64,000 nt of DNA from Yuukianura sp. NJ FZ-2021 (lineage: Eukaryota), in NCBI GenBank assembly GCA_046563655.1, contig CM102290.1:1-64000 (forward strand), written 5' to 3'. Shown here in pieces: positions 645 through 64,000 of this stretch. Position 1 is the stretch's first letter; each line of letters starts with the position of its first letter. Made by a program: the position numbers and the translations under genes. The notes under the pieces were generated by a model. The model saw only the letters and a list, made by a program, of their open reading frames with translations. It was not told the origin of the DNA and made no database searches.

Positions 645-3600
645 TTCAAATTCAACAAAAACCCTCGAGATCGGCAGGTTAGGATTCAAATTCAACAAAA
701 ACCCTCGAGATCGGCAGGTTAGGATTCAAATTCAACAAAAACCCTCGAGATCGGCAGGTTAGGATTCAAATTCAACAAAAACCCTCGAGATCGGCAGGTT
801 AGGATTCAAATTCAACAAAACCCTCGAGATCGGCAGGTTAGGATTCAAATTCAACAAAAACCCTCGAGATCGGCAGGTTAGGATTCAAATTCAAAAAAAA
901 CCCTCGAGATCGGCAGGTTAGGATTCAAATTCAACAAAAACCCTCGAGATCGGCAGGTTAGGATTCAAATTCAACAAAAACCCTCGAGATCGGCAGGTTA
1001 GGATTCAAATTCAACAAAAACCCTCGAGATCGGCAGGTTAGGATTCAAATTCAACAAAAACCCTCGAGATCGGCAGGTTAGGATTCAAATTCAACAAAAA
1101 CCCTCGAGATCGGCAGGTTAGGATTCAAATTCAACAAAAACCCTCGAGATCGGCAGGTTAGGATTCAAATTCAACAAAAACCCTCGAGATCGGCAGGTTA
1201 GGATTCAAATTCAACAAAACCCTCGAGATCGGCAGGTTAGGATTCAAATTCAACAAAAACCCTCGAGATCGGCAGGTTAGGATTCAAATTCAACAAAAAC
1301 CCTCGAGATCGGCAGGTTAGGATTCAAATTCAACAAAAACCCTCGAGATCGGCAGGTTAGGATTCAAATTCAACAAAAACCCTCGAGATCGGCAGGTTAG
1401 GATTCAAATTCAACAAAAACCCTCGAGATCGGCAGGTTAGGATTCAAATTCAACAAAAACCCTCGAGATCGGCAGGTTAGGATTCAAATTCAACAAAAAC
1501 CCTCGAGATCGGCAGGTTAGGATTCAAATTCAACAAAAACCCTCGAGATCGGCAGGTTAGGATTCAAATTCAACAAAAACCCTCGAGATCGGCAGGTTAG
1601 GATTCAAATTCAACAAAACCCTCGAGATCGGCAGGTTAGGATTCAAATTCAACAAAAACCCTCGAGATCGGCAGGTTAGGATTCAAATTCAACAAAACCC
1701 TCGAGATCGGCAGGTTAGGATTCAAATTCAACAAAACCCTCGAGATCGGCAGGTTAGGATTCAAATTCAACAAAAACCCTCGAGATCGGCAGGTTAGGAT
1801 TCAAATTCAACAAAAACCCTCGAGATCGGCAGGTTAGGATTCAAATTCAACAAAAACCCTCGAGATCGGCAGGTTAGGATTCAAATTCAACAAAAACCCT
1901 CGAGATCGGCAGGTTAGGATTCAAATTCAACAAAAACCCTCGAGATCGGCAGGTTAGGATTCAAATTCAACAAAAACCCTCGAGATCGGCAGGTTAGGAT
2001 TCAAATTCAACAAAAACCCTCGAGATCGGCAGGTTAGATTCAAATTCAACAAAAACCCTCGAGATCGGCAGGTTAGGATTCAAATTCAACAAAAACCCTC
2101 GAGATCGGCAGGTTAGGATTCAAATTCAACAAAACCCTCGAGATCGGCAGGTTAGGATTCAAATTCAACAAAACCCTCGAGATCGGCAGGTTAGGATTCA
2201 AATTCAACAAAACCCTCGAGATCGGCAGGTTAGGATTCAAATTCAACAAAACCCTCGAGATCGGCAGGTTAGGATTCAAATTCAACAAAAACCCTCGAGA
2301 TCGGCAGGTTAGGATTCAAATTCAACAAAAACCCTCGAGATCGGCAGGTTAGGATTCAAATTCAACAAAAACCCTCGAGATCGGCAGGTTAGGATTCAAA
2401 TTCAACAAAAACCCTCGAGATCGGCAGGTTAGGATTCAAATTCAACAAAAACCCTCGAGATCGGCAGGTTAGGATTCAAATTCAACAAAAACCCTCGAGA
2501 TCGGCAGGTTAGGATTCAAATTCAACAAAAACCCTCGAGATCGGCAGGTTAGGATTCAAATTCAACAAAAACCCTCGAGATCGGCAGGTTAGGATTCAAA
2601 TTCAACAAAAACCCTCGAGATCGGCAGGTTAGGATTCAAATTCAACAAAAACCCTCGAGATCGGCAGGTTAGGATTCAAATTCAACAAAAACCCTCGAGA
2701 TCGGCAGGTTAGGATTCAAATTCAACAAAAACCCTCGAGATCGGCAGGTTAGGATTCAAATTCAACAAAAACCCTCGAGATCGGCAGGTTAGGATTCAAA
2801 TTCAACAAAAACCCTCGAGATCGGCAGGTTAGGATTCAAATTCAACAAAAACCCTCGAGATCGGCAGGTTAGGATTCAAATTCAACAAAAACCCTCGAGA
2901 TCGGCAGGTTAGGATTCAAATTCAACAAAAACCCTCGAGATCGGCAGGTTAGGATTCAAATTCAACAAAAACCCTCGAGATCGGCAGGTTAGGATTCAAA
3001 TTCAACAAAAACCCTCGAGATCGGCAGGTTAGATTCAAATTCAACAAAAACCCTCGAGATCGGCAGGTTAGATTCAAATTCAACAAAAACCCTCGAGATC
3101 GGCAGGTTAGGATTCAAATTCAACAAAAACCCTCGAGATCGGCAGGTTAGGATTCAAATTCAACAAAAACCCTCGAGATCGGCAGGTTAGGATTCAAATT
3201 CAACAAAAACCCTCGAGATCGGCAGGTTAGGATTCAAATTCAACAAAAACCCTCGAGATCGGCAGGTTAGGATTCAAATTCAACAAAAACCCTCGAGATC
3301 GGCAGGTTAGGATTCAAATTCAACAAAAACCCTCGAGATCGGCAGGTTAGGATTCAAATTCAACAAAAACCCTCGAGATCGGCAGGTTAGGATTCAAATT
3401 CAACAAAAACCCTCGAGATCGGCAGGTTAGGATTCAAATTCAACAAAAACCCTCGAGATCGGCAGGTTAGGATTCAAATTCAACAAAAACCCTCGAGATC
3501 GGCAGGTTAGGATTCAAATTCAACAAAAACCCTCGAGATCGGCAGGTTAGGATTCAAATTCAACAAAAACCCTCGAGATCGGCAGGTTAGGATTCAAATT

Positions 3601-12600: not shown

Positions 12601-15513
12601 TCGGCAGGTTAGGATTCAAATTCAACAAAAACCCTCGAGATCGGCAGGTTAGGATTCAAATTCAACAAAAACCCTCGAGATCGGCAGGTTAGGATTCAAA
12701 TTCAACAAAAACCCTCGAGATCGGCAGGTTAGGATTCAAATTCAACAAAAACCCTCGAGATCGGCAGGTTAGGATTCAAATTCAACAAAAACCCTCGAGA
12801 TCGGCAGGTTAGGATTCAAATTCAACAAAAACCCTCGAGATCGGCAGGTTAGGATTCAAATTCAACAAAAACCCTCGAGATCGGCAGGTTAGGATTCAAA
12901 TTCAACAAAAACCCTCGAGATCGGCAGGTTAGGATTCAAATTCAACAAAAACCCTCGAGATCGGCAGGTTAGGATTCAAATTCAACAAAAACCCTCGAGA
13001 TCGGCAGGTTAGGATTCAAATTCAACAAAAACCCTCGAGATCGGCAGGTTAGGATTCAAATTCAACAAAAACCCTCGAGATCGGCAGGTTAGGATTCAAA
13101 TTCAACAAAAACCCTCGAGATCGGCAGGTTAGGATTCAAATTCAACAAAAACCCTCGAGATCGGCAGGTTAGGATTCAAATTCAACAAAAACCCTCGAGA
13201 TCGGCAGGTTAGGATTCAAATTCAACAAAAACCCTCGAGATCGGCAGGTTAGGATTCAAATTCAACAAAAACCCTCGAGATCGGCAGGTTAGGATTCAAA
13301 TTCAACAAAAACCCTCGAGATCGGCAGGTTAGGATTCAAATTCAACAAAAACCCTCGAGATCGGCAGGTTAGGATTCAAATTCAACAAAAACCCTCGAGA
13401 TCGGCAGGTTAGGATTCAAATTCAACAAAAACCCTCGAGATCGGCAGGTTAGGATTCAAATTCAACAAAAACCCTCGAGATCGGCAGGTTAGGATTCAAA
13501 TTCAACAAAAACCCTCGAGATCGGCAGGTTAGGATTCAAATTCAACAAAAACCCTCGAGATCGGCAGGTTAGGATTCAAATTCAACAAAAACCCTCGAGA
13601 TCGGCAGGTTAGGATTCAAATTCAACAAAAACCCTCGAGATCGGCAGGTTAGGATTCAAATTCAACAAAAACCCTCGAGATCGGCAGGTTAGGATTCAAA
13701 TTCAACAAAAACCCTCGAGATCGGCAGGTTAGGATTCAAATTCAACAAAAACCCTCGAGATCGGCAGGTTAGGATTCAAATTCAACAAAAACCCTCGAGA
13801 TCGGCAGGTTAGGATTCAAATTCAACAAAAACCCTCGAGATCGGCAGGTTAGGATTCAAATTCAACAAAAACCCTCGAGATCGGCAGGTTAGGATTCAAA
13901 TTCAACAAAAACCCTCGAGATCGGCAGGTTAGGATTCAAATTCAACAAAAACCCTCGAGATCGGCAGGTTAGGATTCAAATTCAACAAAAACCCTCGAGA
14001 TCGGCAGGTTAGGATTCAAATTCAACAAAAACCCTCGAGATCGGCAGGTTAGGATTCAAATTCAACAAAAACCCTCGAGATCGGCAGGTTAGGATTCAAA
14101 TTCAACAAAAACCCTCGAGATCGGCAGGTTAGGATTCAAATTCAACAAAAACCCTCGAGATCGGCAGGTTAGGATTCAAATTCAACAAAAACCCTCGAGA
14201 TCGGCAGGTTAGGATTCAAATTCAACAAAAACCCTCGAGATCGGCAGGTTAGGATTCAAATTCAACAAAAACCCTCGAGATCGGCAGGTTAGGATTCAAA
14301 TTCAACAAAAACCCTCGAGATCGGCAGGTTAGGATTCAAATTCAACAAAAACCCTCGAGATCGGCAGGTTAGGATTCAAATTCAACAAAAACCCTCGAGA
14401 TCGGCAGGTTAGGATTCAAATTCAACAAAAACCCTCGAGATCGGCAGGTTAGGATTCAAATTCAACAAAAACCCTCGAGATCGGCAGGTTAGGATTCAAA
14501 TTCAACAAAAACCCTCGAGATCGGCAGGTTAGGATTCAAATTCAACAAAAACCCTCGAGATCGGCAGGTTAGGATTCAAATTCAACAAAAACCCTCGAGA
14601 TCGGCAGGTTAGGATTCAAATTCAACAAAAACCCTCGAGATCGGCAGGTTAGGATTCAAATTCAACAAAAACCCTCGAGATCGGCAGGTTAGGATTCAAA
14701 TTCAACAAAAACCCTCGAGATCGGCAGGTTAGGATTCAAATTCAACAAAAACCCTCGAGATCGGCAGGTTAGGATTCAAATTCAACAAAAACCCTCGAGA
14801 TCGGCAGGTTAGGATTCAAATTCAACAAAAACCCTCGAGATCGGCAGGTTAGGATTCAAATTCAACAAAAACCCTCGAGATCGGCAGGTTAGGATTCAAA
14901 TTCAACAAAAACCCTCGAGATCGGCAGGTTAGGATTCAAATTCAACAAAAACCCTCGAGATCGGCAGGTTAGGATTCAAATTCAACAAAAACCCTCGAGA
15001 TCGGCAGGTTAGGATTCAAATTCAACAAAAACCCTCGAGATCGGCAGGTTAGGATTCAAATTCAACAAAAACCCTCGAGATCGGCAGGTTAGGATTCAAA
15101 TTCAACAAAAACCCTCGAGATCGGCAGGTTAGGATTCAAATTCAACAAAAACCCTCGAGATCGGCAGGTTAGGATTCAAATTCAACAAAAACCCTCGAGA
15201 TCGGCAGGTTAGGATTCAAATTCAACAAAAACCCTCGAGATCGGCAGGTTAGGATTCAAATTCAACAAAAACCCTCGAGATCGGCAGGTTAGGATTCAAA
15301 TTCAACAAAAACCCTCGAGATCGGCAGGTTAGGATTCAAATTCAACAAAAACCCTCGAGATCGGCAGGTTAGGATTCAAATTCAACAAAAACCCTCGAGA
15401 TCGGCAGGTTAGGATTCAAATTCAACAAAAACCCTCGAGATCGGCAGGTTAGGATTCAAATTCAACAAAAACCCTCGAGATCGGCAGGTTAGGATTCAAA
15501 TTCAACAAAAACC
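645..15513. repeat. Subtelomeric 40-bp satellite, ~370 copies (TTCAAATTCAACAAAAACCCTCGAGATCGGCAGGTTAGGA)
   Basis: Exact 40-bp period; each unit has an XhoI site and AGGTTAGG; A>C variant (AGGC) cluster ~5420-7190. Confidence 0.98.
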
Positions 15514-15530
15514 TTTATAGAGCTTTTGGA

Positions 15531-16690
15531 CATATCTCAAACCCCCGACAACGAAAGGTGTAATGCAAAATTTTCTAAAATGTCAAACACCAGCAAACTG
15601 CTGGCAATGGCCTTCCTAATGCAGAATCTTGAAAATATAATACTGCATCGACATTCTGAAAAAAAAACGTGAACTTGTGAAAAAATTGAACTTTGAACAA
15701 ATGAACGTGAGAAAAAATTGACTGAGAAAATAACGAAGGTGGCAGAATAAACTGAACTTTGAAAACAAGGGACTGTGGAAAAAAGATTAATATGGTAAAG
15801 TAAATTGAACTTTGAAAAAAAATGAAGGTGTCAGAATAAACTGAACTTTCAACAAAATGACTGTCGGGAAAAAAAGGAGTTGTGAACATAAAATGAACTT
15901 TGTAAAAAAAATGACGGTGGAGAAAAAGTGATTGTGGGAAAATGATTAAGGTGGGGATATAAAATGAATTTTGAAAAAAAAATGACTGTGGAAAAAAAAT
16001 GAATATGGGAAAATATAATGGACTCTGAAAAAAAATGACTATTGGAAAAAATGAACGTGGGGAAAAAATGACGGTGAGAAAATAAATTGAACTTTGAAAT
16101 AAAACTCAACGTCGGAAGAAATTAAAGATGACACAGTAAAATGAACTTCGAAAAAAAAATGACTGTGGGAAAAAAATGACGGTGGGGAAAAATGATTGTG
16201 TGAAAATGATGAAGGTGGGGATATCAAATGAACTTTGAAAAAAAAATGACTGTGGGAAAAAAATGAAGGTGGTGAAAAAATGACGGTGGGAAAATAAATT
16301 GAATTTTGAAATAAAAATCAACGTCGGAAGAAAATGAAGGTGGGAGAATAAAGTGCAATTTGAAAAAAAATGACTGTGGAACAAAAAAATGAATATGGGA
16401 AAATATAATGAACTTTGAAAAAAAAATGACCATTCGAAAAAATGATGGTGGGGAGAAAATTACGGTGGGAAAATAAATTGAACTTTGAAATAAAAATCAA
16501 CGTCGGAAGAAAATGAACTATGGGAAAAAAATGAATGTGGGAAAACAAAATGAACTTTGAAAGAAAAACGAGTGTGGGAAAATACTGAGCGTGGGAAACT
16601 AAAATGAACTCTGAAAAAAAATGAACTTTTAAAAACATGACCGTGGGAAAAAGTACTTTGAAAACAATTGAACTTAGAACAAAAAATTAA
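15531..16690 (+). repeat. Conserved ~130-bp array flank followed by degenerate A-rich repeats (AAAATGAACTTTGAAAAAAAATGACTGTGGG-like); body of a dispersed array-carrying element
   Basis: 15531-15660 aligns by eye with the reverse complement of 54902-55030, and both continue into the same A-rich repeat type. Confidence 0.8.
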
Positions 16691-16898
16691 TTTAATTATT
16701 AATTTTCTATTTTTTAGCCTCCTTCCCCCCATGCCCCACCTTCCCCGGGCCCCCCTACCCCCCAAACAAACAACACGGGGGGTAGGAGAGCCCGGACCAT
16801 AGCTTTGGCGTCTACAAATACCCACACCGCTGGGTGGACTCGAACCACCTTCCTGCATAATGCTAAACAGGCGCTCTATACCTGTAAGCTACTATGCC
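16686..16898 (-). ncRNA. tRNA(Ala)-like-headed Pol III unit (SINE head / pseudo-tRNA) with downstream GC hairpin and T6 terminator
   Basis: Minus strand: A box TAGCTTACAGGTATAGAGC, TTAGCAT anticodon-loop-like sequence, T arm GGTGG-TTCGAGT-CCACC (16833-16849); acceptor stem does not pair; hairpin 16745-16795; first T-run at 16681-16686. Confidence 0.6.
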
Positions 16899-17134
16899 AA
16901 CACTGAGAGAATAGGAATCAAAACTTGTATTTATGTTGTGTTTTTTTGCCAAAAAATCATGTTTTTTGCAAAAAAAAACTCCAAAATCCACCGATAGGCG
17001 AGATTTTGGTGTCAAAATCGATACTATTTTAAATTTCCGATCTTTTGACACCAAATTCGGCCATCTCCGAAACGTTTTTCCGACGAAAAAAGCGTTTTTT
17101 TCACAATAGCGTTAAGACAATAGAGCTAAACGTC

Positions 17135-17945
17135 ATCTTAAAATTCTGGAATACGTAATACGGCAAAGAACTAATCAATTACTAGTCGAGATAACGTATT
17201 CCAGAATTTTAATTTGCATAGTTACTGAATAATTAAGCAAAAACTGAATTTGAGGACAATAGGCGCTAATTAGCTTAATTATGCAAATTAAAATTCTGGA
17301 ATACGTCATTTGGCAAAGAACTAATCGATTACAAGCTGATATAACACATTTCAGGATTTTAAATCGATTACTTTAGGCGTAATCAGCAATCGTAGAAATC
17401 GCAAGTACTGGCGATCAAGATTTTGGTTCAATAGTGAAAAATGAAGCTAATTAAGCACTTTAAAACTCCGGAATACGTTATATGGGAAAGAACTAATGAA
17501 TTACAAGTCGATTTAACACATTTCAGGATTTTAAATCGATTACTCTACGAGTAATCTGCAATCGCAGACATCGCAGGTACATGCGATCGTGAGTTTGGCA
17601 CAAAAGTGAAAATTAAAGCTAATTAAGCATTTTAAAACTCTGGAATACGTTATACGGCAAAGAACCAATCGATTACAAGCTGACATAACACATTTCAGGA
17701 TTTTAAATCGATTACTTAAGGTGTAATCAGCAATCGTAGTTATCGCAAGTAGCTGCGACCATAGTTTTGGTACAATAGTAGAAATTAAGCTAATTACGCA
17801 TGTTAAAACTCCGGAATACGTTGCAGAGCAAAGAACTAATCGATTACAAGCTGTGACAACACATTTTAGAGTTTTAAATCGATTACTTTAGGCGTAATCT
17901 GCAATCGCAGACATCGCAAGTACTTGCGATGACTATTATGACACA
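17135..17945. repeat. Degenerate ~170-bp tandem repeat (~5 copies)
   Basis: GGAATACGT..GGCAAAGAACTAATCGATTACAAG-like block recurs at ~17150, 17300, 17470, 17640, 17810. Confidence 0.8.
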
Positions 17946-25980: not shown

Positions 25981-28900
25981 GGTCAAATTTGTAAAATGAG
26001 AAATTTTAACTAAAGGTGTCTTCATACTGGCCAAAATTCGTAAAATGAGAAATTTTCACTAAAGGTGTCTTCATTCTGGCCAAAATTTGTAAAATGAGAA
26101 ATTTTCACTAAAGGTGTCTTCATACTGGCCAAAAATTTGTAAAATGAGACATTTTAAGAAAAGGTGTCTTCATACTGGCCAAAATTAGTAAAATAAGAAA
26201 TTTTCATTACAGGTGTCTTCATACTGGCCATACTTTGTAAAATGAGAAATTATAAGTAAAGGTGTCTTCATACTGGCCAAAATTCGTAAAATGAGAAATT
26301 TTCACAACAGGTGTCATCATACTAGCCTAACTTTGTAAAATGAGAAATTTTCACTACAGGTGTCTTCATACTGGCCCAAAATTTGTGAAAAGAGACATTT
26401 TAAGAAAAGGTGTGTTCATACTGGCCAAAATTTGTAAAATGAGAAATTTTTATTAAAGGTGTCTTCATACTGGCCAAAATTTGTAAAATGAGAAATTTTC
26501 ACTGAAGGTGTCCTCATACTGGCCAAAATTTGTAAAATGTAAAATTTTCACTGAAGGTGTGTTCATGCTGGCCAGAATTTGTAAAATGAGAAATTTTCAT
26601 TGAAGGTGTCTTCATACTAGCCAAAATTTGTAAATTGAAAAATTTTCACTACATGTGTCTTCATACTGGCCAAAATTTGTAAAATGAAAAATTTTTACTA
26701 CAGGTGTCTTCATACTGGCCAAAATTTGTAAAATGAGAAATTTTAAGTAAAGGTGTCTTCATACTGGCCAAAATTTGTAAAATCAGAAATTCTAAGAGAA
26801 AGTGTCTTCATACCGGCCAAAATTAGTTAAGAAATTTTCACTACAGGTGTCTTCATACTAGCCATACTTTGTAAAATGAGAAATTTTAAGAAAGGGTGTC
26901 TTCATACTGGTCAAAATTTTTAAAATGAAAAATTTTCACTACAGGTGTCTTCATACTGGCCAAAATTTGTAAAATGAGAAATTTTAAGTAAAGGTGTCTT
27001 CATACTGGCCAAAATTTGTAAAATGAGAAATTTTAAGAAAGGGTGTCTTCATACTGGTCAAAATTTTTAAAATGAAAAATTTTCACTACAGGTGTCTTCA
27101 TACTGGCCAAAATTTGTAAAATGAGAAATTTCCACTGAAGGTGTCTTCATACTAGCCAAAAATTGTAAATTGAAAAGTTTCACTACAGGTGTCTTCATAC
27201 TGGCCAAAATTTGTAAACTGAGAAATTTTAAGAAAGGGTGTCTTCATACTGGTCAAAATTTTTAAAATGAAAAATTTTCACTACAGGTGTCTTCATACTG
27301 GCCAAAATTTGTAAAATGAGAAATTTTAAGAGAAAGTGTCTTCATACCGGCCAAAATTAGTTAAGAAATTTTCACTACAGGTGTCTTCAAACTGGCCCAA
27401 AATTTGTGAAATGAGACATTTTAAGAAAAGGTGTCTTCATACTGGCCAAAAGTTGTAAAATGAGAAATTTTTATTAAAGGTGTCTTCATACTGGCCAAAA
27501 TTTGTAAAATGAGAAATTTTCACTAATGGTGTCTTCATACTGGCCAAAATTTGTAAAATGAGAAATTTTCACTGAAGTTGTCCTCATACTGGCCAAAATT
27601 TGTAAAATGTAAAATTTTCACTGAAGGTGTCTTCATGCTGGCCAGAATTTGTAAACTGAGAAATTTTCATTGAAGGTGGCTCCGTACTAGCCAAAATTTG
27701 TAAATTGAAAAATTTTCACTATATGTGTCTCCATACTGGCCAAAATTTGTAAAATGAGAAATTTTCACAACAGGTGTCATCATACTAGCCAAACTTTGTA
27801 AAATGAGAAATTTTCACTAAAGGTGTCTTCATACTGGCCAAAAATTTGTAAAATGAGACATTTTAAGAAAAGGTGTCTTCATACTGGCCAAAAGTTGTAA
27901 AATGAGAAATTTTTATTAAAGGTGTCTTCATACTGGCCAAAATTCGTAAAATGAGAAATTTTCACTAAAGGTGTCTTCATACTGGCCAAAATTTGTAAAA
28001 TGAGAAATTTTCACTAAAGGTGTCTTCATACTGGCCAAAAATTTGTAAAATGAGACATGTTAAGAAAAGGTGTCTTCATACTGGCCAAAATTAGTAAAAT
28101 AAGAAATTTTCACTACAGGTGTCTTCATACTGGCCATACTTTGTAAAATAAGAAATTATAAGTAAAGGTGTCTTCATACTGGCCAAAATTCGTAAAATGA
28201 GAAATTTTCACAACAGGTGTCATCATACTAGCCTAACTTTGTAAAATGAGAAATTTTCACTACAGGTGTCTTCATACTGGCCCAAAATTTGTGAAAAGAG
28301 ACATTTTAAGAAAAGGTGTCTTCATACTGGCCAAAATTTGTAAAATGAGAAATTTTTATTAAAGGTGTCTTCATACTGGCCAAAATTTGTAAAATGAGAA
28401 ATTTTCAGTAATGGTGTCTTCATACTGGCCAAAATTTGTAAAATGAGAAATTTTCACTGAAGGTGTCCTCATACTGGCCAAAATTTGTAAAATGTAAAAT
28501 TTTCACTGAAGGTGTGTTCATGCTGGCCAGAATTTGTAAAATGAGAAATTTTCATTGAAGGTGTCTTCATACTAGCCAAAATTTGTAAATTGAAAAATTT
28601 TCACTACATGTGTCTTCATACTGGCCAAAATTTGTAAAATGAGAAATTTTCACAACAGGTGTCATCATACTAGCCAAACTTTGCAAAATGAGAAATTTTA
28701 AGTAAAGGTGTGTTCATACTGGCCAAAATTTGTAAAATCAGAAATTCTAAGAGAAAGTGTCTTCATACCGGCCAAAATTAGTTAAGAAATTTTCACTACA
28801 GGTGTCTTCATACTGGCCATACTTTGTAAAATGAGAAATTTTAAGAAAGGGTGTCTTCATACTGGTCAAAATTTTTAAAATGAAAAATTTTCACTACAGG

Positions 28901-31900
28901 TGTCTTCATACTGGCCAAAATTTGTAAAATGAGAAATTTTCACTGAAGGTGTCCTCATACTGGCCAAAATTTGTAAAATGTAAAATTTTCACTGAAGGTG
29001 TGTTCATGCTGGCCAGAATTTGTAAAATGAGAAATTTTCATTGAAGGTGTCTTCATACTAGCCAAAATTTGTAAATTGAAAAATTTTCACTACATGTGTC
29101 TTCATACTGGCCAAAATTTGTAAAATGAGAAATTTTCACAACAGGTGTCATCATACTAGCCAAACTTTGCAAAATGAGAAATTTTAAGTAAAGGTGTGTT
29201 CATACTGGCCAAAATTTGTAAAATCAGAAATTCTAAGAGAAAGTGTCTTCATACCGGCCAAAATTAGTTAAGAAATTTTCACTACAGGTGTCTTCATACT
29301 GGCCATACTTTGTAAAATGAGAAATTTTAAGAAAGGGTGTCTTCATACTGGTCAAAATTTTTAAAATGAAAAATTTTCACTACAGGTGTCTTCATACTGG
29401 CCAAAATTTGTAAAATGAGAAATTTTCACTGAAGGTGTCCTCATACTGGCCAAAATTTGTAAAATGTAAAATTTTCACTGAAGGTGTGTTCATGCTGGCC
29501 AGAATTTGTAAAATGAGAAATTTTCATTGAAGGTGTCTTCATACTAGCCAAAATTTGTAAATTGAAAAATTTTCACTACATGTGTCTTCATACTGGCCAA
29601 AATTTGTAAAATGAGAAATTTTCACAACAGATGTCATCATACTAGCCAAACTTTGCAAAATGAGAAATTTTAAGTAAAGGTGTGTTCATACTGGCCAAAA
29701 TTTGTAAAATCAGAAATTCTAAGAGAAAGTGTCTTCATACCGGCCAAAATTAGTTAAGAAATTTTCACTACAGGTGTCTTCATACTGGCCATACTTTGTA
29801 AAATGAGAAATTTTAAGAAAGGGTGTCTTCATACTGGTCAAAATTTTTAAAATGAAAAATTTTCACTACAGGTGTCTTCATACTGGCCAAAATTTGTAAA
29901 ATGAGAAATTTTAAGTAAAGGTGTCTTCATACTGGCCAAAATTTGTAAAATGAGAAATTTTAAGAAAGGGTGTCTTCATACTGGTCAAAATTTTTAAAAT
30001 GAAAAATTTTCACTACAGGTGTCTTCATACTGGCCAAAATTTGTAAAATGAGAAATTTCCACTGAAGGTGTCTTCATACTAGCCAAAAATTGTAAATTGA
30101 AAAGTTTCACTACAGGTGTCTTCATACTGGCCAAAATTTGTAAACTGAGAAATTTTAAGAAAGGGTGTCTTCATACTGGTCAAAATTTTTAAAATGAAAA
30201 ATTTTCACTACAGGTGTCTTCATACTGGCCAAAATTTGTAAAATGAGAAATTTTAAGAGAAAGTGTCTTCATACCGGCCAAAATTAGTTAAGAAATTTTC
30301 ACTACAGGTGTCTTCAAACTGGCCCAAAATTTGTGAAATGAGACATTTTAAGAAAAGGTGTCTTCATACTGGCCAAAAGTTGTAAAATGAGAAATTTTTA
30401 TTAAAGGTGTCTTCATACTGGCCAAAATTTGTAAAATGAGAAATTTTCACTAATGGTGTCTTCATACTGGCCAAAATTTGTAAAATGAGAAATTTTCACT
30501 GAAGTTGTCCTCATACTGGCCAAAATTTGTAAAATGTAAAATTTTCACTGAAGGTGTCTTCATGCTGGCCAGAATTTGTAAACTGAGAAATTTTCATTGA
30601 AGGTGGCTCCGTACTAGCCAAAATTTGTAAATTGAAAAATTTTCACTATATGTGTCTCCATACTGGCCAAAATTTGTAAAATGAGAAATTTTCACAACAG
30701 GTGTCATCATACTAGCCAAACTTTGTAAAATGAGAAATTTTCACTAAAGGTGTCTTCATACTGGCCAAAAATTTGTAAAATGAGACATTTTAAGAAAAGG
30801 TGTCTTCATACTGGCCAAAAGTTGTAAAATGAGAAATTTTTATTAAAGGTGTCTTCATACTGGCCAAAATTCGTAAAATGAGAAATTTTCACTAAAGGTG
30901 TCTTCATACTGGCCAAAATTTGTAAAATGAGAAATTTTCACTAAAGGTGTCTTCATACTGGCCAAAAATTTGTAAAATGAGACATGTTAAGAAAAGGTGT
31001 CTTCATACTGGCCAAAATTAGTAAAATAAGAAATTTTCACTACAGGTGTCTTCATACTGGCCATACTTTGTAAAATAAGAAATTATAAGTAAAGGTGTCT
31101 TCATACTGGCCAAATTTCGTAAAATGAGAAATTTTCACAACAGGTGTCATCATACTAGCCTAACTTTGTAAAATGAGAAATTTTCACTACAGGTGTCTTC
31201 ATACTGGCCCAAAATTTGTGAAAAGAGACATTTTAAGAAAAGGTGTCTTCATACTGGCCAAAATTTGTAAAATGAGAAATTTTTATTAAAGGTGTCTTCA
31301 TACTGGCCAAAATTTGTAAAATGAGAAATTTTCAGTAATGGTGTCTTCATACTGGCCAAAATTTGTAAAATGAGAAATTTTCACTGAAGGTGTCCTCATA
31401 CTGGCCAAAATTTGTAAAATGTAAAATTTTCACTGAAGGTGTGTTCATGCTGGCCAGAATTTGTAAAATGAGAAATTTTCATTGAAGGTGTCTTCATACT
31501 AGCCAAAATTTGTAAATTGAAAAATTTTCACTACATGTGTCTTCATACTGGCCAAAATTTGTAAAATGAGAAATTTTCACAACAGGTGTCATCATACTAG
31601 CCAAACTTTGCAAAATGAGAAATTTTAAGTAAAGGTGTGTTCATACTGGCCAAAATTTGTAAAATCAGAAATTCTAAGAGAAAGTGTCTTCATACCGGCC
31701 AAAATTAGTTAAGAAATTTTCACTACAGGTGTCTTCATACTGGCCATACTTTGTAAAATGAGAAATTTTAAGAAAGGGTGTCTTCATACTGGTCAAAATT
31801 TTTAAAATGAAAAATTTTCACTACAGGTGTCTTCATACTGGCCAAAATTTGTAAAATGAGAAATTTTCACTGAAGGTGTCCTCATACTGGCCAAAATTTG

Positions 31901-33900
31901 TAAAATGTAAAATTTTCACTGAAGGTGTGTTCATGCTGGCCAGAATTTGTAAAATGAGAAATTTTCATTGAAGGTGTCTTCATACTAGCCAAAATTTGTA
32001 AATTGAAAAATTTTCACTACATGTGTCTTCATACTGGCCAAAATTTGTAAAATGAGAAATTTTCACAACAGGTGTCATCATACTAGCCAAACTTTGCAAA
32101 TTGAGAAATTTTAAGTAAAGGTGTGTTCATACTGGCCAAAATTTGTAAAATCAGAAATTCTAAGAGAAAGTGTCTTCATACCGGCCAAAATTAGTTAAGA
32201 AATTTTCACTACAGGTGTCTTCATACTGGCCATACTTTGTAAAATGAGAAATTTTAAGAAAGGGTGTCTTCATACTGGTCAAAATTTTTAAAATGAAAAA
32301 TTTTCACTACAGGTGTCTTCATACTGGCCAAAATTTGTAAAATGAGAAATTTTAAGTAAAGGTGTCTTCATACTGGCCAAAATTTGTAAAATGAGAAATT
32401 TTAAGAAAGGGTGTCTTCATACTGGTCAAAATTTTTAAAATGAAAAATTTTCACTACAGGTGTCTTCATACTGGCCAAAATTTGTAAAATGAGAAATTTC
32501 CACTGAAGGTGTCTTCATACTAGCCAAAAATTGTAAATTGAAAAGTTTCACTACAGGTGTCTTCATACTGGCCAAAATTTGTAAACTGAGAAATTTTAAG
32601 AAAGGGTGTCTTCATACTGGTCAAAATTTTTAAAATGAAAAATTTTCACTACAGGTGTCTTCATACTGGCCAAAATTTGTAAAATGAGAAATTTTAAGAG
32701 AAAGTGTCTTCATACCGGCCAAAATTAGTTAAGAAATTTTCACTACAGGTGTCTTCAAACTGGCCCAAAATTTGTGAAATGAGACATTTTAAGAAAAGGT
32801 GTCTTCATACTGGCCAAAAGTTGTCAAAATGAAAAATTTTAAGTAATGGTATCTTCATACTGGCCAAAATTTGTAAAATGAAAAATTTTAAGTAATGGTA
32901 TCTTCATACTGGCCAAAATTTGTAAAATGAGAAATTTTCACTGAAGTTGTCCTCATACTGGCCAAAATTTGTAAAATGTAAAATTTTCACTGAAGGTGTC
33001 TTCATGCTGGCCAGAATTTGTAAACTGAGAAATTTTCATTGAAGGTGGCTCCGTACTAGCCAAAATTTGTAAATTGAAAAATTTTCACTATATGTGTCTC
33101 CATACTGGCCAAAATTTGTAAAATGAGAAATTTTCACAACAGGTGTCATCATACTAGCCAAACTTTGTAAAATGAGAAATTTTCACTAAAGGTGTCTTCA
33201 TACTGGCCAAAAATTTGTAAAATGAGACATTTTAAGAAAAGGTGTCTTCATACTGGCCAAAAGTTGTAAAATGAGAAATTTTTATTAAAGGTGTCTTCAT
33301 ACTGGCCAAAATTTGTAAAATGAGAAATTTTCACTAATGGTGTCTTCATACTGGCCAAAATTTGTAAAATGAGAAATTTTCACTGAAGTTGTCCTCATAC
33401 TGGCCAAAATTTGTAAAATGTAAAATTTTCACTGAAGGTGTCTTCATGCTGGCCAGAATTTGTAAACTGAGAAATTTTCATTGAAGGTGGCTCCGTACTA
33501 GCCAAAATTTGTAAATTGAAAAATTTTCACTATATGTGTCTCCATACTGGCCAAAATTTGTAAAATGAGAAATTTTCACAACAGGTGTCATCATACTAGC
33601 CAAACTTTGTAAAATGAGAAATTTTAAGTAAAGGTGTCTTCATACTGGCCAAAATTTGTAAAATGAGAAATTTTAAGAGAAAGTGTCTTCATACCGGCCA
33701 AAATTAGTTAAGAAATTTTCACTACAGGTGTCTTCATACTGGCCATACTTTGTAAAATGAGAAATTTTAAGAAAAGGTGTCTTCATACTGGTCAAAATTT
33801 TTAAAATGAAAAATTTTCACTACAGGTGTCTTCATACTGGCCAAAATTTTTAAAATGAAAAATTTTCACTACAGGTGTCTTCATACTGGCCAAAATTTGT
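25981..33900. repeat. 49-bp satellite (GGCCAAAATTTGTAAAATGAGAAATTTTCACTAAAGGTGTCTTCATACT) with higher-order repeats
   Basis: ~160 diverged monomers; variant markers recur at 486 bp and 2927 bp spacing. Confidence 0.95.
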
Positions 33901-52399: not shown

Positions 52400-53755
52400 C
52401 ACCACCTAAACATAAAGAACCAAAGTTAGTACCAAAGGACTCAGCACTAAAAAGTTAACTACCTCTACTTACTTTCACAGGTTAATCAACACGAATTTGA
52501 CACGAACTGTTAATGGGTCATCTTAAATCAGCAGTCAACACAACAACACAACTGATTCACTTTAAAATTGTACTGTACCCGAATGAGGGGCTGGCTAAAC
52601 GACGGTTCTCGGATTCCTCAGATTTGTATGAGGGGTTCACCCTCTCAATCCGTCGACTAACAGCGAACGTTTAGTAAAAAAAATGTAGCAAACGTAGTCA
52701 TCAAAGGTAGGAAAAGAACTTACAATAAAAAAAAACGTTTTTGGCAGTGTTTCTGGGTTCTTAAACATCCAGTGGCTTCATTGCCACTTCCACTGGATAT
52801 CCAGTGGAAGAAATGGCTTCCTACTGGACGGTGGATGGAAGAAATCCGCTGAGTTTAAAAACTCAGCGCGGATTTCAAATAAGTAAAAATTTAATACTAT
52901 GAAATACTTTAATTAACTATTTAACCCGCTTTTCCCTAGGTGGTTTTGTTATTTGAACCTACGTTAGTGCAATTTGTAACTGCTTTTGTAGTGTTTCTCA
53001 TTTCTCTTAACCTAACCTTTACTTTAAAAATTTAAAAATTCCAATTTTTCCTAGTGTAGCAACATCTTTATTTTAAAAATTTTAAAATTCCATTTTTTCA
53101 AGTGTAGAACCTACTTTACTTGAAAAATTTATTAATTCCAATTTTTCCAAGTGTAAAGCCACCTTTACTTTAAAAATTCAAATTTTTCCGACTGTAGCAA
53201 CACCTTTACCTTAAAAATTGTAAAATTCCAACTGTCCACGGGTGTAGAACCACCTTTACTTTAAAAATTTAAAAATTCCATTTTTCCCAAGTGTAGAGCA
53301 ACCTTTAGTTTAAAAATTCCAATTTTTCCGACTTAGCCACACCTTTACTTTAAAATTCCAATTTTTCCGACTGTAGCCACATCTTTTCTTTAAAAATTTA
53401 AAAATTTGAATTTTTCCGAGTGTAGAACCACCCTTACTTTAAAAATTTAAAAATTCCATTTTTTCCGTGTAGAGTCACCTTTACTTTAAAAATTCCAATT
53501 TTTCCAAATGTAGCAACATCTTTACTTTAGAAATTTTGAAATTCCAGCTTTTCAGAATATAAGACCATCCTTACTTTAAAAATATTAAAATCCCAATTTT
53601 TTTGAGTGTAGCAACACTTTACTTTAAAAATTAAAAACTCCCAATTTTTCCGAGTCTAGCAATACCTTTACTTTAAAAATTTACGAAATTCCAATTTTTT
53701 CGAGTGTGGCAAGACCTTTACTTTAAAAATTTAAAAAATTCCAATTTTTCCGAGT

Positions 53756-56009
53756 CTTTTATTATTTTTTTTTATTTATTTGTTACTCTCCCTGCGGGCC
53801 CAAAGCCCATGGAAAAGGAGTTCGATTTGAATTCTAATAACATGAGAGTTGTTCCTATAACTACAGTGAGAAATGGTACTGTGCGTTAAGTTGTTAAAAA
53901 TGGTTAGATTAAGTTGAGACCAAAGATGAGGGTGTAGTGGTGACGTCATTTTCGTTGTCTCTTCTCCCTAAATTTTTATTTGGCTTCGGCTAGCTTGACT
54001 TTCAATAAGGACTGGTTTATGCTGGTTAGTGATTCATCGTTGATGGAACCGTATAATGTGGCAATTTCGGTCTTGAAAGCATCTCGGCTTTGCGATGCAG
54101 CTGACTTCAGCGCATCAAGCTTGAGAATTTCTGAGGCAATTCCTCTGTCAGCGGGAGTGTTAGGTTTTCTTGTCACTAGGGTGAACGCAAAGATGCTTAT
54201 ATGCTGATCTGGTGACAATTGGTAATTAGTTTTCGAGTGACAAGAATTTGGATGCAGAATTTGCTGATCTATGCTGGAAGCGGATACTCCTTTTGATGAC
54301 TTCTTTTTCCTTTTTCGCATGAAAATCTTGTCATTTGGGCCTTCATGTGTGGGTTTATTTTCCTGGGACCGTTCACTGGGGTCACAAGGGTCAAAGGCCT
54401 CCAACACGTCCGTAGGAAGGGTTGGAATGTGACCTTGTAGTAAGAGCGAGGTGAGCTCGGCCTCCCTCGGTTGTAAAGTGATATCATTATTGGAAGAATG
54501 AGGGAAAATGACGGACGTTGATGTACTTGGCTCATCGGACGGGAAACTGGACGGTGCAGGTTGCATTTTCGTATTCAGGTGTGAGTTAGAAATGGAGCTA
54601 TTTCTTTCAATTGCGAGGGACGTTTTCGAAATTTTTTTTTTGACTTACTCCGGAGTCTGTCTTGGGGTAAGAGGTCATCTGAGATGCCTATGCTAGATCC
54701 TTTCAAAAGGTGACATTGTCGGAAAATTTTGGAATAGTAATTCTGGGTTCCTAGTGACATTTTTATTTCAAAGTTCATTTTATTTTCCCACCTTAATTTT
54801 CTTTCCAAAATCATTATTTTCTCACAGTCATTTTTTTTTTGCAAAGTTAATTTTTTCTTCAAAGTTCAATTTTTTTCCAAGTTCATGTTTTAAAAACATG
54901 TTCAGAATCTCCATGCAGTATTATATTTTCATGATTCTGCGTTAGAAAGGCGATTGCCAAGTGTTTGCCTGTTTTTGACATTTTTGAAAATTTTGCATTA
55001 CAAAGTCCGTTGGCAGGGTTTTGAGATCTGCTAGGGCGATTTCCCGGGGTTATCGCCATATCTGTTGTAGATCTGCGAGGGCGATTTCCCGGGGTTATCG
55101 CCATATCTGTTGCCGATCTGCGAGGGCGATTTCCCGGGGTTATCGCCATATTTGTTGCCGATCTGCGAGGGCGATTTCCCGGGGTTATCGCCATATTTGT
55201 TGCCGATCTGCGAGGGCGATTTCCCGGGGTTATCGCCATATCTGTTGCCGATCTGCGAGGGCGATTTCCCGGGGTTATCGCCATATCTGTTGCCGATCTG
55301 CAAGGGCGATTTCCCGGGGTTATCGCCATATCTGTTGCCGATCTGCAAGGGCGATTTCCCGGGGTTATCGCCATATCTGTTGCCGATCTGCGAGGGCGAT
55401 TTCCCGGGGTTATCGCCATATCTTTTGCCGATCTGCGAGGGCGATTTCCCGGGGTTATCGCCATATCTGTTGCCGATCTGCGAGGGCGATTTCCCGGGGT
55501 TATCGCCATATCTGTTGCCGATTTGCGCGGGCGATTTCCCGGGGTTATCGCCATATCTGTTGTCGATCTGCGCGGGCGATTTCCCGGGGTTATCGCCATA
55601 TCTGTTTTTTATCAAATGCACGTACACGAATAACTGTTACTTTCACTTTCAGCTGTAGTTGAATTCAATCAGAAATTGATTTCGTGGAAAGCTGATGTAG
55701 TGAGAGACCGTGGAAGACAATGTTGAGATGCTTTTCATTTATGGGCGTGTTATTGCCCCGCGGAAGCGGCAATTCAAGAATTTTTGAAAATTTGAGTTCG
55801 AAAATAATTTTTAGATTGGTAAACTGTGCTAGGTCAGCGGCAGAGAATTCGTATGTTCCAATTAGACTTATTAGACTTTCTAAACAAAATGTAGCAACTT
55901 CCATCGCAGGATTTAATAGCTACAATAGTTTGGTGAGAATAGAGGCTGAAGGAGAGGAACTCGGTGACAAGTCTGTACTGGGTGACGTGTCAAATCGAAC
56001 TCCTTTTCC
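53756..56009 (-). mobile_element. ORF1-only non-LTR-like element (degenerate), A-rich tail
   Basis: L1/L2-type ORF1 RRM motifs HLNIVFHGL..IRVRAFD and KIFRQCHLLKGSSIGISDDL; 3' GGGC..GCCC stem then TAAATAAAAAAAAATAATAAAA; TTTTCCGAGT at both flanks; no RT. Confidence 0.6.
55026..55605. repeat. 45-bp tandem array (~13 copies) of an element inserted at ~54760-55605
   Basis: Unit GCGATTTCCCGGGGTTATCGCCATATCTGTTGCCGATCTGCGAGG. Confidence 0.95.
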
Positions 56010-57353
56010 GAGTTTAGCAACACCTTTACTATAAAAATTGAAAAATTCGAATTTTTCCAAGTATAGAACCAGCTTTACTTTAAAAATTTAATAATTCCAT
56101 TTTTCCAAGTGTAGAGCCACCGTTACTTTAAAAATTCCAATTTTTCCGACTTAGCCACACCTTTACTTTAAAAATCCCAATGCTTTTGAGTCTAGCAACA
56201 CCTTTACTTTAAAAATTTAAAAATTCTAATTTTCTTGAGTGTAGCAACACTTTTACTTTAAAAATTAAAAAATCCAGATTTTTTCGAGTGTAGCAACTCC
56301 TTTAATTTAAAAATTTAAAAATTCTAATTTTCTTGAGTGTAGCAACACCTTTACTTTAAAAATTTAAAAATTCTAATTTTCTTGAGTGTAGCAATACTTT
56401 TACTTGAAAAATTAATAAATCCCAATTTTTTCGAGTGTAGCAACACCTTTACTATAAAAATTTAAAAATTCTAAATTTCTTGAGTGTAGCAACACTTTTA
56501 CTTTAGCAAGTAAAAAATCCCAGTTTTTCCGGGTCTAGCAATACCTATACTTTAAAAATTTGAAAAATTCCAATTTTTTCGAGTGCAGCAACACCTTTAC
56601 TTTAAAAATTTAAAAATCCCATTTTTTCCAAGTGTAGAAGCACCTTTACTTTAAAAATTAAAAAATTCCAATTTTTCCGAGTCTAGCAACACCTTTACTT
56701 TAAAAATTAAAAAATTTTTATTTTTCCGATTTTTACCACACCTTTACTTAAAAAATTCCAATTTTTCTGAAAGATTTTATCCATAAAAAGAGTTTATCAT
56801 TTTTTTAGTTTTTAAAGATTTTAAAGTCCTAAAAAGGATTTATCCTAATTTTCAGGTCCATACTCTTATTAAAAAATCCGAACTGCCAATGCCAGGTGAA
56901 AGTTGTACTAATGCATCACTGTAATATTTATTTTAAAAAATGTAAGAACTGAGAACTGTATTTTTAAACATTAAAATATCGGTGGTTTGAGCGACAGATG
57001 TTTTTGAAAAGGGGTACTCACCCCTCATGCAAATCCGAGGAGTGCGATATCCGACGATTAGCCAGACCCACCAAGATTGGAATTTGAAAATAGACTTCCC
57101 TCTTCGCGGTTGGAACAAACGAGATCATTACACATTGCAACTTCAAGGAATATTTCCACGTAAAGGTAAGAAGCTTACACAGTTAAGCCTTACCTCAACC
57201 AACAGTTGTTACTCCTTCATTTTCACTTTTTATTGTTCGGAAAGTAAGTCAGAGTTGTTTGGAGCAGTTGATGTGGATTGGGCAGTTGTAAAGGGAATCC
57301 ACTGAATCTGGACAAACCGACAGTCACTTCCACTCAAGTAGAGAGGTCAGAGA

Positions 57354-62426: not shown

Positions 62427-64000
62427 AAAATTGTGCCGTCGAAATTGAGGCGTTGAAATTGTGCCGTCGAAATTGAGGCGTTGAAATTGTGCCGTTGAAA
62501 TTGAGGCGTTGAAATTGTGCTGTTGAAATTGAGGCGTTGAAATTGTGCTGTTGAAATTGAGGCGTTGAAATTGTGCTGTCGAAATTGAGGCGTTGAAATT
62601 GTGCCGTCGAAATTGAGCCGCTGTAATAATTCCAGATGCCACATGCGCACTCCGTTTAAATGGAATGGAAAAACATTCAGGGCCGTATGTTTATCGACTT
62701 TGGGCCACTCTGTTGAATAAATTTGAACACAGCTTATCAATTATACTACATATTTGGATTACTGGTTCCGTTAATTAGTTAATACTTTTACTGAATTAAT
62801 CATCCTTTCATTAGAAAACATTTTTTACCTGCTAAAATTGATATTAGAATAGGAAACAAAGATAATTAAATGATTAAATCAAATTATATAATTAATATTA
62901 ATATATATAATATGCAAACACTAATGCCAATTATGTGATATATAAGTATATGTTTAGCGAAATTATGTTTTCGTTGTTTCGTCCTTAATGATTATGTATC
63001 TTTTATTCAACTTTTCTGAAAAAGAAAGTAATTGGATAAGTATAAGTTATATAATATAATAATTAGAGATACACTCATATAAAACATATAATTAGTATTG
63101 ATGTATGCATATTAATTCTATAATCTGATTTAGTCGTCTATTAGCTTTTGTTTCTTATGTTTCATAACAGTTTTAATTAGTAATCAAAATGCTTTTTTAC
63201 TAAGAATATTACTAATTTAGTAAAAAGAATAACTAATTAACGATTCATAAACCATAGATCCGTTTAAGTGTTTGAAATGGTGAATTGAGTTAATCAAATT
63301 GGTCCAACAGATGGGCCGAATCTTGGTAGCACACGGCCCTGAATGTTTCTGTATTCCCAAACAGGGAGGACACATGCGCAGTCCGTCCTTAAAGAAGAAC
63401 AATACACAAAGAGTCCTGTGCCACCCAGTTTTTGCCTTTGTAAGAAATAACTTCCGAACTAATTATAAAATGCAATGCACATGCGTACATTACCAGGTTT
63501 GTTATTCATTTCTTCATCAGAAGAATAAATAAATAAATTAAATAAATGATTATACAATTTTATTTATTATATCCATCGCTCACTATATGATTTTATTATG
63601 AACTATTATTATTATTATTATCTATTATCATTATTATATTATTATTCATATATAGTATTATTATCATTATTATTATATGATATAACATATTACATATACA
63701 TAATATAATATATATACGTTATATTATATACATATTTATTATTTATTATTTTTATAATTAATTAGCAAAACTGGTAATGTGCATTTCATTTTGTAACTTC
63801 TGATGTTATTTCATGCAAAGGCGAAAACTCAGTGGCGCACGACTCTTTGTCTTTTGGTATTCCCTAAGAGCCTACTGCGCATGTGGCATCTGGAATTATT
63901 ACAGCGGCTCAATTTCGACGGCACAATTTCAACGCCTCAATTTCGACAGCACAATTTCAACGCCTCAATTTCAACAGCACAATTTCAACGCCTCAATTTC
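62427..64000. mobile_element. Foldback/MULE-like structure: inverted arms with 28-bp (14+14) tandem subrepeats, runs off the window end
   Basis: GAAATTGTGCCGTC/GAAATTGAGGCGTT array + CCGCTGTAATAATTCCAGATGCCACATGCGCA (to 62649), inverted at 63876-64000. Confidence 0.65.

Follow-up and report, generated by a model that had tools for sequence, protein, structure and literature searches.

Element-internal tandem arrays are known from SVA-type composite retroposons, which contain an internal VNTR, and from the 5' monomer arrays of mouse L1. For the Drosophila element DINE-TR1, Dias et al. are said to have reported in 2015 that the central repeats also form long, satellite-like arrays in heterochromatin. 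That mobile elements carry and seed tandem repeats is a firmly established principle from work on oysters and flies; the locus described here is a further example, and its general surprise is small. Element-internal arrays can expand into satellites (PMC12628747, excerpts), and repeats borne by Helentrons provide the precedent for this kind of link (PMC7492417, excerpts). The Cg_HINE elements of the Pacific oyster, which are non-autonomous Helentrons, have constant flanks, central tandem arrays in fixed orientation, a simple-repeat tract beside the array and monomers related to a classical satellite. Related flanks enclose unrelated central repeats in Cg_HINE_3 and Cg_HINE_6 and carry unrelated repeats in Cg_HINE group 2; otherwise divergent Cg_HINE monomers keep conserved motifs, those of Cg_HINE_4 having short motifs in common (PMC7492417, excerpts). 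DINE-1 and DINE-TR1 are dispersed, non-coding elements that contain central repeats and a microsatellite in addition to a subterminal inverted repeat (PMC4067079, excerpts), and telomere-associated satellites of arthropods and other eukaryotes form long, uniform short-unit arrays directly inside a TTAGG-type telomere, with a telomere-like word in the array (PMC9498494, PMC8122249, excerpts). Our literature search found no springtail subtelomeric satellite described.

These features of Cg_HINE, DINE-1 and telomere-associated satellites recur at the present locus, which lies in a 64-kb window (the whole stretch of DNA analysed) and holds what we read as two states of one module: a 13-unit array inside a mobile element, hereafter the carrier, and a 370-unit, telomere-capped satellite. 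SVA-type and mouse L1 elements resemble it in their non-autonomous character, target duplication, A-rich tail and composite origin, and in an internal array of 35–50-bp units whose copy number varies between copies. They differ in that neither a LINE partner nor a LINE-derived 3' end was identified here, the module is not confined to the carrier, and the carrier has an inverted repeat linking its 5' to its 3' region. Unlike Cg_HINE, whose units measure 140–180 bp (PMC7492417, excerpts), the units here span 40–45 bp, the carrier is flanked by a target duplication and ends in an A-rich tail, members of one carrier family occur with or without the module, and one array reaches ~370 units and abuts the telomere. 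In contrast to DINE-1, which inserts at TT targets without duplication (PMC4067079, excerpts), the carrier shows neither property, and no autonomous partner was seen. Unlike telomere-associated satellites as described in excerpts of PMC9498494 and PMC8122249, a diverged paralogue of the proximal border lies here inside a mobile element 40 kb away.

The window opens with a non-telomeric leader of 37 nt (1..37) that is not CCTAA repeat and may represent untrimmed sequencing adapter or barcode, which it resembles. The terminal (CCTAA)n tract follows (38..644, plus strand; Tandem Repeats Finder (TRF), period 5, 120.8 copies, 98% matches), with ~121 units and with the minus strand as its G-strand, which points to the window start. 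The tract ends at 644 and a 40-bp satellite begins at 645, in the direct adjacency that marks a subtelomeric satellite (645..15513, plus strand; TRF, 371.5 copies, 98% matches; the window resembles a nanopore-based assembly, and this length, like the 39- and 41-bp monomer variants, may include errors). Every unit contains a core, CCCTCGAGATCGGCA, and a telomere-like word, AGGTTAGG; core matches number 371, with 0.03 expected. Among the monomers, 294 of 369 are identical and 21 distinct forms occur. The variants are clustered, with one present in 30 copies between 5407 and 8792, and are absent beyond 9398.

The telomere-like word, 8 nt long, lies on the plus strand, where the terminal tract reads CCTAA, and is thus inverted relative to that tract; only 2.1% of 200,000 shuffled 40-mers contain even a 7-nt telomere word. 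This inversion speaks against a role of the word as a putative telomerase seed. The telomere tract starts mid-monomer, at the exact phase of the inverted word. When the rest of the window was searched for a source of the 40-mer's non-core letters, only chance matches of 9–13 nt came up.

On its proximal side, the last, cut 40-bp monomer is followed by a 17-nt spacer (15514..15530, plus strand), a constant segment of the 40-type (15531..15663, plus strand) and an A-rich minisatellite of 17–18-nt units (15664..16690, plus strand; ~55 units, 49% A), which ends in an A run. The same succession of array, 133-nt segment and A-rich 17–18-nt minisatellite, in the same order and relative orientation, is found on the minus strand near 55 kb. 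There, a 45-bp array with core CCCTCGCAGATCGGCA (55025..55606; TRF, 12.9 copies, 97% matches) leads into a constant segment of the 45-type (54900..55030), which shares its initial 6 nt with the last, cut monomer, and then into a minisatellite of 7 units with ATAAAAA at its end (54760..54899). The 17-nt spacer has no clear counterpart at this copy. The two full copies of the module are 40 kb apart on one chromosome arm, in opposite orientation. At the telomeric copy, the proximal side is free of carrier sequence and the distal side is lost, so that an insertion at that place is no more than putative.

Comparison of the two copies by blastn (15500–17300 against the window) aligned 15531–15764 with 55030–54766 on the opposite strand, with 74.7% identity over 265 columns (E 2.4e-47). 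Within the constant segment, 109 of 133 columns (82%) are identical between 15531–15663 and the reverse complement of 54900–55030, with no internal gaps. An nhmmer profile built from both segments hits just these two places in the window, with E-values of 2.8e-43 (40-type) and 2.1e-43 (45-type), the next best place scoring E 0.25. The A-rich minisatellites, delimited by TRF at 15662–16635 (period 17, 55.3 copies) and 54758–54891 (period 18, 7.4 copies), comprise 55 and 7 units, respectively, by a separate count; blastn between them gives 79–84% identity (E down to 4e-25), and both stop in the same sub-repeat phase (GAACTTTGAAATAAAAA vs GAACTTAGAACAAAAAA).

The monomers themselves match in their core, CCCTCG-AGATCGGCA vs CCCTCGCAGATCGGCA, over 15 of 16 columns; the core score of 12 is reached by none of 5,000 shuffled monomer pairs (maximum 11). 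The remaining parts, 25 nt of the 40-mer and 29 nt of the 45-mer, do not align. As regards an origin of the satellite from an element, the array is bordered by the element's flank (133 nt and A-rich tract, in the same order), and the homology of the monomers is confined to the 15/16-nt core. The first-pass annotation had claimed a common ~130-bp flank followed by A-rich repeats, a common core in otherwise different monomers, and a version ~30-fold larger at the chromosome end; all three hold, the copy ratio being 28.8 and the 17-nt spacer being a new detail, and the alignment it had proposed as a check, from 15531 onward against the reverse complement near 55 kb, is significant at the E-value given above.

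The 55-kb copy of the module lies, in the same orientation, within the carrier, a 2248-bp non-coding mobile element on the minus strand (53756..56003) delimited by an excision test and by contigs. The carrier interrupts a 49-bp satellite, identified by TRF and the excision test, that extends over 53015..53755 on its low side and 56004..56757 on its high side. The decamer ACTCGGAAAA stands at both junctions, upstream at 56004..56013 and downstream at 53746..53755 (both minus strand). Removal of the insert together with one decamer leaves a satellite unit of 50 bp, while keeping both leaves 60 and removing both leaves 40; the carrier is a discrete insertion that duplicated 10 bp of its target, the 49-bp satellite, and that has an A-rich tail. 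The tail (53756..53790, minus strand) has 24 A in 35 nt and is not common to other carrier copies: X3 and X4 contigs match the carrier to 53791–53792 and then diverge, and the word depth in X1 drops from 687 in the neighbouring bin to 38.8 at the tail. A perfect inverted repeat of 20 nt has its 5' arm at 55990..56009 (14 nt in the carrier, 6 nt in the duplicated target) and its 3' arm at 53811..53830 (both minus strand). Homology between copies stops 20 nt beyond the 3' arm, at 53791, and the insertion itself ends 55 nt beyond it; should the 6 nt belong to the carrier, the duplication would shrink to 4 bp. A target duplication of 10 bp, within the several to ~20 bp of LINE-dependent retroposons, and a copy-variable A-rich 3' tail after a conserved end are both characters of that class. 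No tRNA, 5S or 7SL-like head was detected by Rfam at E up to 1 in 53700–56060, no LINE lies within the window, and no Rep/helicase, reverse transcriptase or transposase domain occurs in the 66 scanned of 112 window open frames of at least 90 aa.

Within the carrier, the 45-bp array begins directly at carrier sequence, and no termini belonging to the module itself can be recognised; the 7-nt repeat ATAAAAA that flanks the module lies in A-rich sequence. Carrier sequence outside the module, sought beside the telomeric array by blastn and nhmmer, has no counterpart there. Judged from these alignments, the common unit is array, 133-nt segment and A-rich minisatellite, not the whole 2248-bp element.

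Two open frames were considered as genes and rejected. The first, of 196 aa in the carrier (53976–54566, minus strand), matches no Pfam family and has no relative in a word-indexed protein search; a full HMMER search returned one bacterial repeat protein, in which a 50-residue low-complexity stretch was matched four times, and this was regarded as spurious. Among the differences listed for an organism-B contig, 18 split 6/5/7 over codon positions 1, 2 and 3, and other carrier copies show a 1-nt deletion at 54165 and stop-codon changes. The second, of 238 aa, runs across the 45-bp array, whose unit length, divisible by 3, keeps it open; its sole Pfam match falls below the cut-off, and no relative was found for the tail that derives from the flank. 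The idea that the constant segment has a conserved secondary structure was likewise rejected (z -2.93 in one copy, -0.04 in the other). Rfam gave no matches at gathering scores and chance-level rows only for the element at E up to 1, and ARAGORN found no tRNA. One tRNA-like Rfam row at E up to 1 lies outside the module.

Public sequence contigs revealed many carrier variants in two organisms, with 175, 85, 150 and 25 contigs in X1, X2, X3 and X4, respectively, at 80% likeness to the carrier or higher. Contigs of X2, X3 and X4 match the carrier to 54759 and continue into a 30-letter consensus; they represent module-free copies. Once 12 other letters have passed, the consensus returns to carrier sequence from beyond the 45-bp array (cf. 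55606–55625); with these 12 extra letters, the copies fall short of an exact empty site. A loose end at 55111 in X3 marks another filled variant of the carrier. Because module-free carriers occur in two organisms, the module is a separable cargo of the carrier. At least four flank versions are present in one sample, namely the 40-type of the window, a 40-type with one changed letter, the 45-type of the window and a diverged 45-type (8 changed letters and 6 gaps over ~104 nt); they could partly be alleles. Two copies of the module are readable in full, and it is short contigs that point to its dispersal beyond about three loci.

In organism A, the summed word depth of the 45-mer bins is ~40–50 times that of the carrier bins, a rough measure which suggests that the 45-mer, devoid of TTAGG, is also amplified somewhere in that organism. 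At 54952, the 40-type flank exceeds the 45-type flank by factors of 5.0, 2.0 and 1.3 in three runs from a single sample; such flank ratios, like contig depths, are not copy numbers. Metagenome and genome contigs, scanned twice each with patterns from the conserved flank (29 nt), a monomer (28 nt) and the end of the carrier (35 nt), yielded 0 matches.

We interpret the 40-bp satellite and the 45-bp array as two old paralogues of one three-part, mobilisable repeat module, a reading that we judge to have about an even chance of being correct. The module consists of a short-unit tandem array, a unique segment of ~133 nt and an A-rich 17–18-nt minisatellite ending in an A run, and would be mobilisable either as a small retroposon-like element itself or as a piece passed among carriers. 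It would deliver a short array to new places, where unequal exchange or replication slippage would then grow or shrink the array in situ. At the chromosome end, where exchange may be little constrained, one copy would have expanded to ~370 units; the distal side of this array would later have been cut, with telomerase adding the present tract mid-monomer. The two monomer types may stem from one ancestral monomer whose core was kept and whose remainder was replaced, the replacement in the 40-mer including a captured 8-nt telomere-repeat word, after which the new monomer would have swept its array. Since the unique segment is 82% identical and each array is 97–98% uniform, amplification or homogenisation of the arrays came long after the module split.

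Seeding of a satellite by elements and capture of a satellite border by an element both fit the data as to direction. Under capture, which we consider possible if unlikely, array, flank and minisatellite would be a native subtelomeric border with monomers differing by chromosome end; a single carrier subfamily would have acquired a fragment of this border, through template switching or as filler DNA, and would now be spreading it. The module without own termini, the module-free carriers of both organisms, the telomeric copy not flanked by carrier sequence and the high 45-mer depth in organism A, which fits a long 45-bp array elsewhere, all agree with such an event, and tandem-repeat capture by elements is one of two scenarios in PMC7492417 (excerpts). 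However, the common sub-repeat phase at both A-rich ends points to a defined end rather than to some arbitrary piece, the 18% flank divergence places the donor elsewhere than at this chromosome end, and the chromosome ends read amount to one. The first-pass annotation had gone further in the direction of seeding: the 15-kb satellite would be the internal array of the whole 55-kb element, expanded in place, with the TTAGG monomer favoured at the chromosome end. The common flank and core, the 29-fold length difference, the rarity of telomere words in shuffled 40-mers and the start of the telomere tract exactly where the monomer's word would be speak for it. This version is nevertheless quite improbable, as the telomeric array has no element sequence other than the module in its vicinity, the element occurs without the module, the telomere word is inverted, and the 45-mer is abundant too in organism A. 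What survives is one family with constant flank, constant core and differing monomers, in which the TTAGG-bearing version is longer at the chromosome end; the whole element as common unit does not.

Classification of the carrier as a non-autonomous Helentron of the HINE or DINE-1 type, with the arrays as central repeats and the A-rich tract as microsatellite, is unlikely, although several structural features invite it. Thomas et al. give inverted-repeat arms of 12–15 bp, located 2–4 nt from the 5' end and 38–60 bp from the 3' end (PMC4067079, excerpts), and the carrier has a perfect 14–20-nt repeat with a terminal 5' arm and a 3' arm 20 nt or 55 nt before the homology or insertion end, respectively. 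A GGGCCC palindrome and a 4-bp stem follow the 3' arm, and the carrier contains tandem repeats and a simple-repeat tract. HINEs, however, insert between T's without target duplication (PMC4067079, PMC7492417, excerpts), whereas the carrier has its 10-bp duplicate, its A-rich tail and flanks that are A-rich, not T-rich, in element orientation. Moreover, its 3' end folds no better than shuffles (z -0.33; 66 of 200 fold equally), array and simple repeat follow each other in the opposite order to that of DINE-1, and the scanned open frames hold no Rep/helicase. A single ectopic duplication from one site to another of the same chromosome arm, with the module immobile, would account for the two full copies 40 kb apart in opposite orientation; we hold it to be very improbable given the 18% flank divergence, the unrelated monomers, the nesting of one copy within a multi-copy element, and the contigs with a further filled carrier variant and a diverged 45-type flank.

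Returning to the paralogous module, a far more speculative extension, which we regard as a long shot, is that the core may be a recognition or break site for monomer replacement, with the 40-mer as a telomere-word capture and as the repeat that generally occupies the subtelomeres of this springtail-like genome. The start of the telomere tract at the phase of the inverted word would fit this extension. If it were true, hundreds of inverted telomere-protein sites would lie beside each telomere. For the module as such, the unique flank lets its split be dated relative to array homogenisation, and the locus offers a concrete place at which to follow the origin of subtelomeric satellites and the replacement of monomers around a conserved core.

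The contig opens with 37 bases that are not telomere repeat (1-37). They resemble untrimmed nanopore barcode flanks; if this is right, the assembly draws on nanopore data and a read began where the DNA molecule physically ended. A terminal telomere tract of CCTAA × ~121 (38-644) leads directly into a 40-bp array of 371.5 copies (645-15513). Cut at a fixed anchor, 294 of 369 monomers are identical. The array holds 21 monomer forms with clustered variants, including an A-to-C variant whose 30 copies all fall within 5407-8792, and past 9398 no variant occurs. Many of the variants are homopolymer-length changes, which may be sequencing errors if the assembly is indeed nanopore-based. The array is followed by a 17-nt spacer, a unique segment (15531-15663) and ~55 degenerate 17-18-nt units rich in A that extend to ~16690.

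The same parts recur in the same order around 55 kb, where they read along the minus strand: a 45-bp array of 12.9 copies (55606-55025), then the unique segment (55030-54900) and finally seven A-rich units that stop at 54760. The telomeric A-rich tract stops in a sub-repeat phase identical to that of the 55-kb copy. A blastn alignment pairs 15531-15764 with 55030-54766 (E 2.4e-47). The unique segments align without internal gaps and agree at 109 of 133 columns, and the two monomers have a common core of 15/16 columns, a level reached by none of 5,000 shuffled pairs. These values bear out the first-pass annotation, which had noted two arrays with the same flank and core and a ~30-fold length difference (29-fold; 371.5 vs 12.9 copies). 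Outside the core, the 40-mer and 45-mer do not align, and a profile of both unique segments reveals no third copy in the window (next E 0.25). The 18% divergence of the unique segment, set against 97-98% uniformity within each array, means that amplification or homogenisation of the arrays long postdates the split of the two copies.

The DNA past the telomeric A-rich tract is unrelated, and blastn and profile searches within the window detect no sequence of the carrier, the 2.2-kb mobile element around the 55-kb copy, beside the telomeric one. The unit common to both loci is the three-part module of array, unique segment and A-rich minisatellite; the earlier proposal of one family joining both arrays holds for this module and is not supported for the whole element. 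Following the telomeric A-rich tract are a hairpin with a 19-nt stem, 89% paired, and a 13-nt loop (16745-16795) and then, on the minus strand, a weak tRNA-like match (16832-16892; 20.7 bits, E 0.35, below the gathering score of 29). Together (16745-16892) these two may be a SINE of tRNA origin that lies in the opposite orientation. A 172-bp unit × 3.8, each unit with 22-25-nt inverted repeats, occupies 17138-17930, past the module and ahead of the first genes, which start from ~18 kb.

The 40-mer contains AGGTTAGG, an exact 8-nt match to the telomere repeat; a 7-nt telomere word is present in only 2.1% of 200,000 shuffled 40-mers. AGGTTAGG lies on the plus strand and is inverted relative to the terminal tract, because the plus strand of that tract reads CCTAA. 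Judging from this orientation, the word cannot seed telomerase properly but could still bind double-strand telomere proteins. The terminal tract finishes in CCTAACCT at the exact monomer phase of AGGTTAGGA (636-660), which every 40-mer unit carries at the phase where the tract ends; at the junction, the reverse complement stands in place of the inverted word, a phase coincidence with a chance of roughly 1 in 20 to 1 in 40. The 19 nt TTCAAATTCAACAAAAACC adjoin the telomere distally and, at 15495-15513, the spacer proximally. A short interstitial telomere-like tract, (AACCT) × 6.4 at 50499-50530, adjoins PRP39-like gene pieces at 47.7-52.4 kb.

The carrier, a 2,248-bp insert on the minus strand (56003 down to 53756) containing the 55-kb module, breaks a 49-bp satellite (53015-53755 and 56004-56757) and is flanked on either side by ACTCGGAAAA (10 nt). 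Removing the insert with one duplicate leaves a 50-bp satellite unit, compared with 60 bp when both duplicates are kept and 40 bp when both are removed. Another 49-bp unit forms an 8-kb array at 25985-33900 (162 copies, 84% matches), its consensus matching the carrier-hosting satellite weakly and in opposite orientation (local score 23, ~85 columns). A 14/28-bp unit forms two inverted arrays (62428-62620 and 63905-64000), ~1.3 kb apart around AT-rich DNA in a foldback-like layout, the second cut off by the window edge.

The carrier tail comprises 35 nt, 24 of them A. At its 5′ end, the insert opens with 14 nt that pair perfectly with a stretch close to the 3′ end, or 20 nt counting 6 nt of duplicated target (arms 53811-53830 and 55990-56009), with the 3′ arm located 20 nt before the conserved 3′ end; these ends would form a panhandle in an RNA copy. 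Such complementary ends are unusual in an element with target duplication and an A-rich tail. Their geometry resembles that of non-autonomous Helentrons, which insert without duplication into a T-rich target (PMC4067079), a pattern that the carrier did not show when checked. In its target duplication, private A-rich tail and conserved 3′ end, the carrier resembles LINE-dependent retroposons. Protein family and protein sequence searches returned no family and no credible relative for its 196-aa open frame, which in other copies in public contigs has a frameshift and a changed stop, with no third-position excess among the differences in a partial list; the insert is taken to be non-coding. Across the window, the 66 of 112 open frames scanned encode only domains of host proteins, with no enzyme of a mobile element among them.

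Contigs from four public runs (X1-X4), three of one sample of organism A and one of organism B, were aligned on 53700-55120 at 80% likeness. The carrier is matched by 175, 85, 150 and 25 contigs, of differing likeness, in the four runs, and so forms a family of many copies that occurs in both organisms. The match of several contigs stops at 53791-53792, beyond which they diverge from the window, which places the family's conserved 3′ end there and makes the A-rich tail private to the window copy. Other copies are 69 nt shorter at 54444-54548, where 36 letters resembling the middle of the carrier's own 105-nt stretch replace it (three runs, both organisms). A contig in X2, X3 and X4 matches the carrier as far as 54759, immediately ahead of the A-rich units, and continues through 12 other letters into the carrier sequence that lies beyond the 45-bp array; read from these contigs, all three runs hold carrier copies lacking the whole module. 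X3 yields a further filled variant (loose end at 55111). Flanks of the 45-type occur as the window's own version and one that differs by 8 letters and 6 gaps across ~104 nt, and those of the 40-type as the window's own and one with a single changed letter. Summed word depth of 45-mer bins versus carrier is ~40-50x in organism A and about equal in organism B, a measure that differs from copy number and whose ratios vary between runs of one sample, and hints at 45-mer amplification elsewhere in organism A.

Our leading reading, given roughly even credence, is that the module is a mobilisable unit that would seed short arrays at new sites, which would then lengthen or shorten locally; the chromosome end would have let one array reach about 370 units, and telomerase would have healed a subsequent break in it. 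The reverse direction, with a carrier capturing the border of a subtelomeric satellite, accounts about as well for the missing module termini and the 45-mer abundance, and we consider it rather improbable. Related flanks around unrelated central repeats, divergent monomers that retain short motifs, and element-borne repeats expanding into satellites are known from Cg_HINE elements of oysters and from DINE-1 relatives in Drosophila (PMC7492417, PMC12628747). Open-access papers and preprints yielded no description of springtail subtelomeric satellites. The locus represents a tidy new case of an already described link between elements and satellites.
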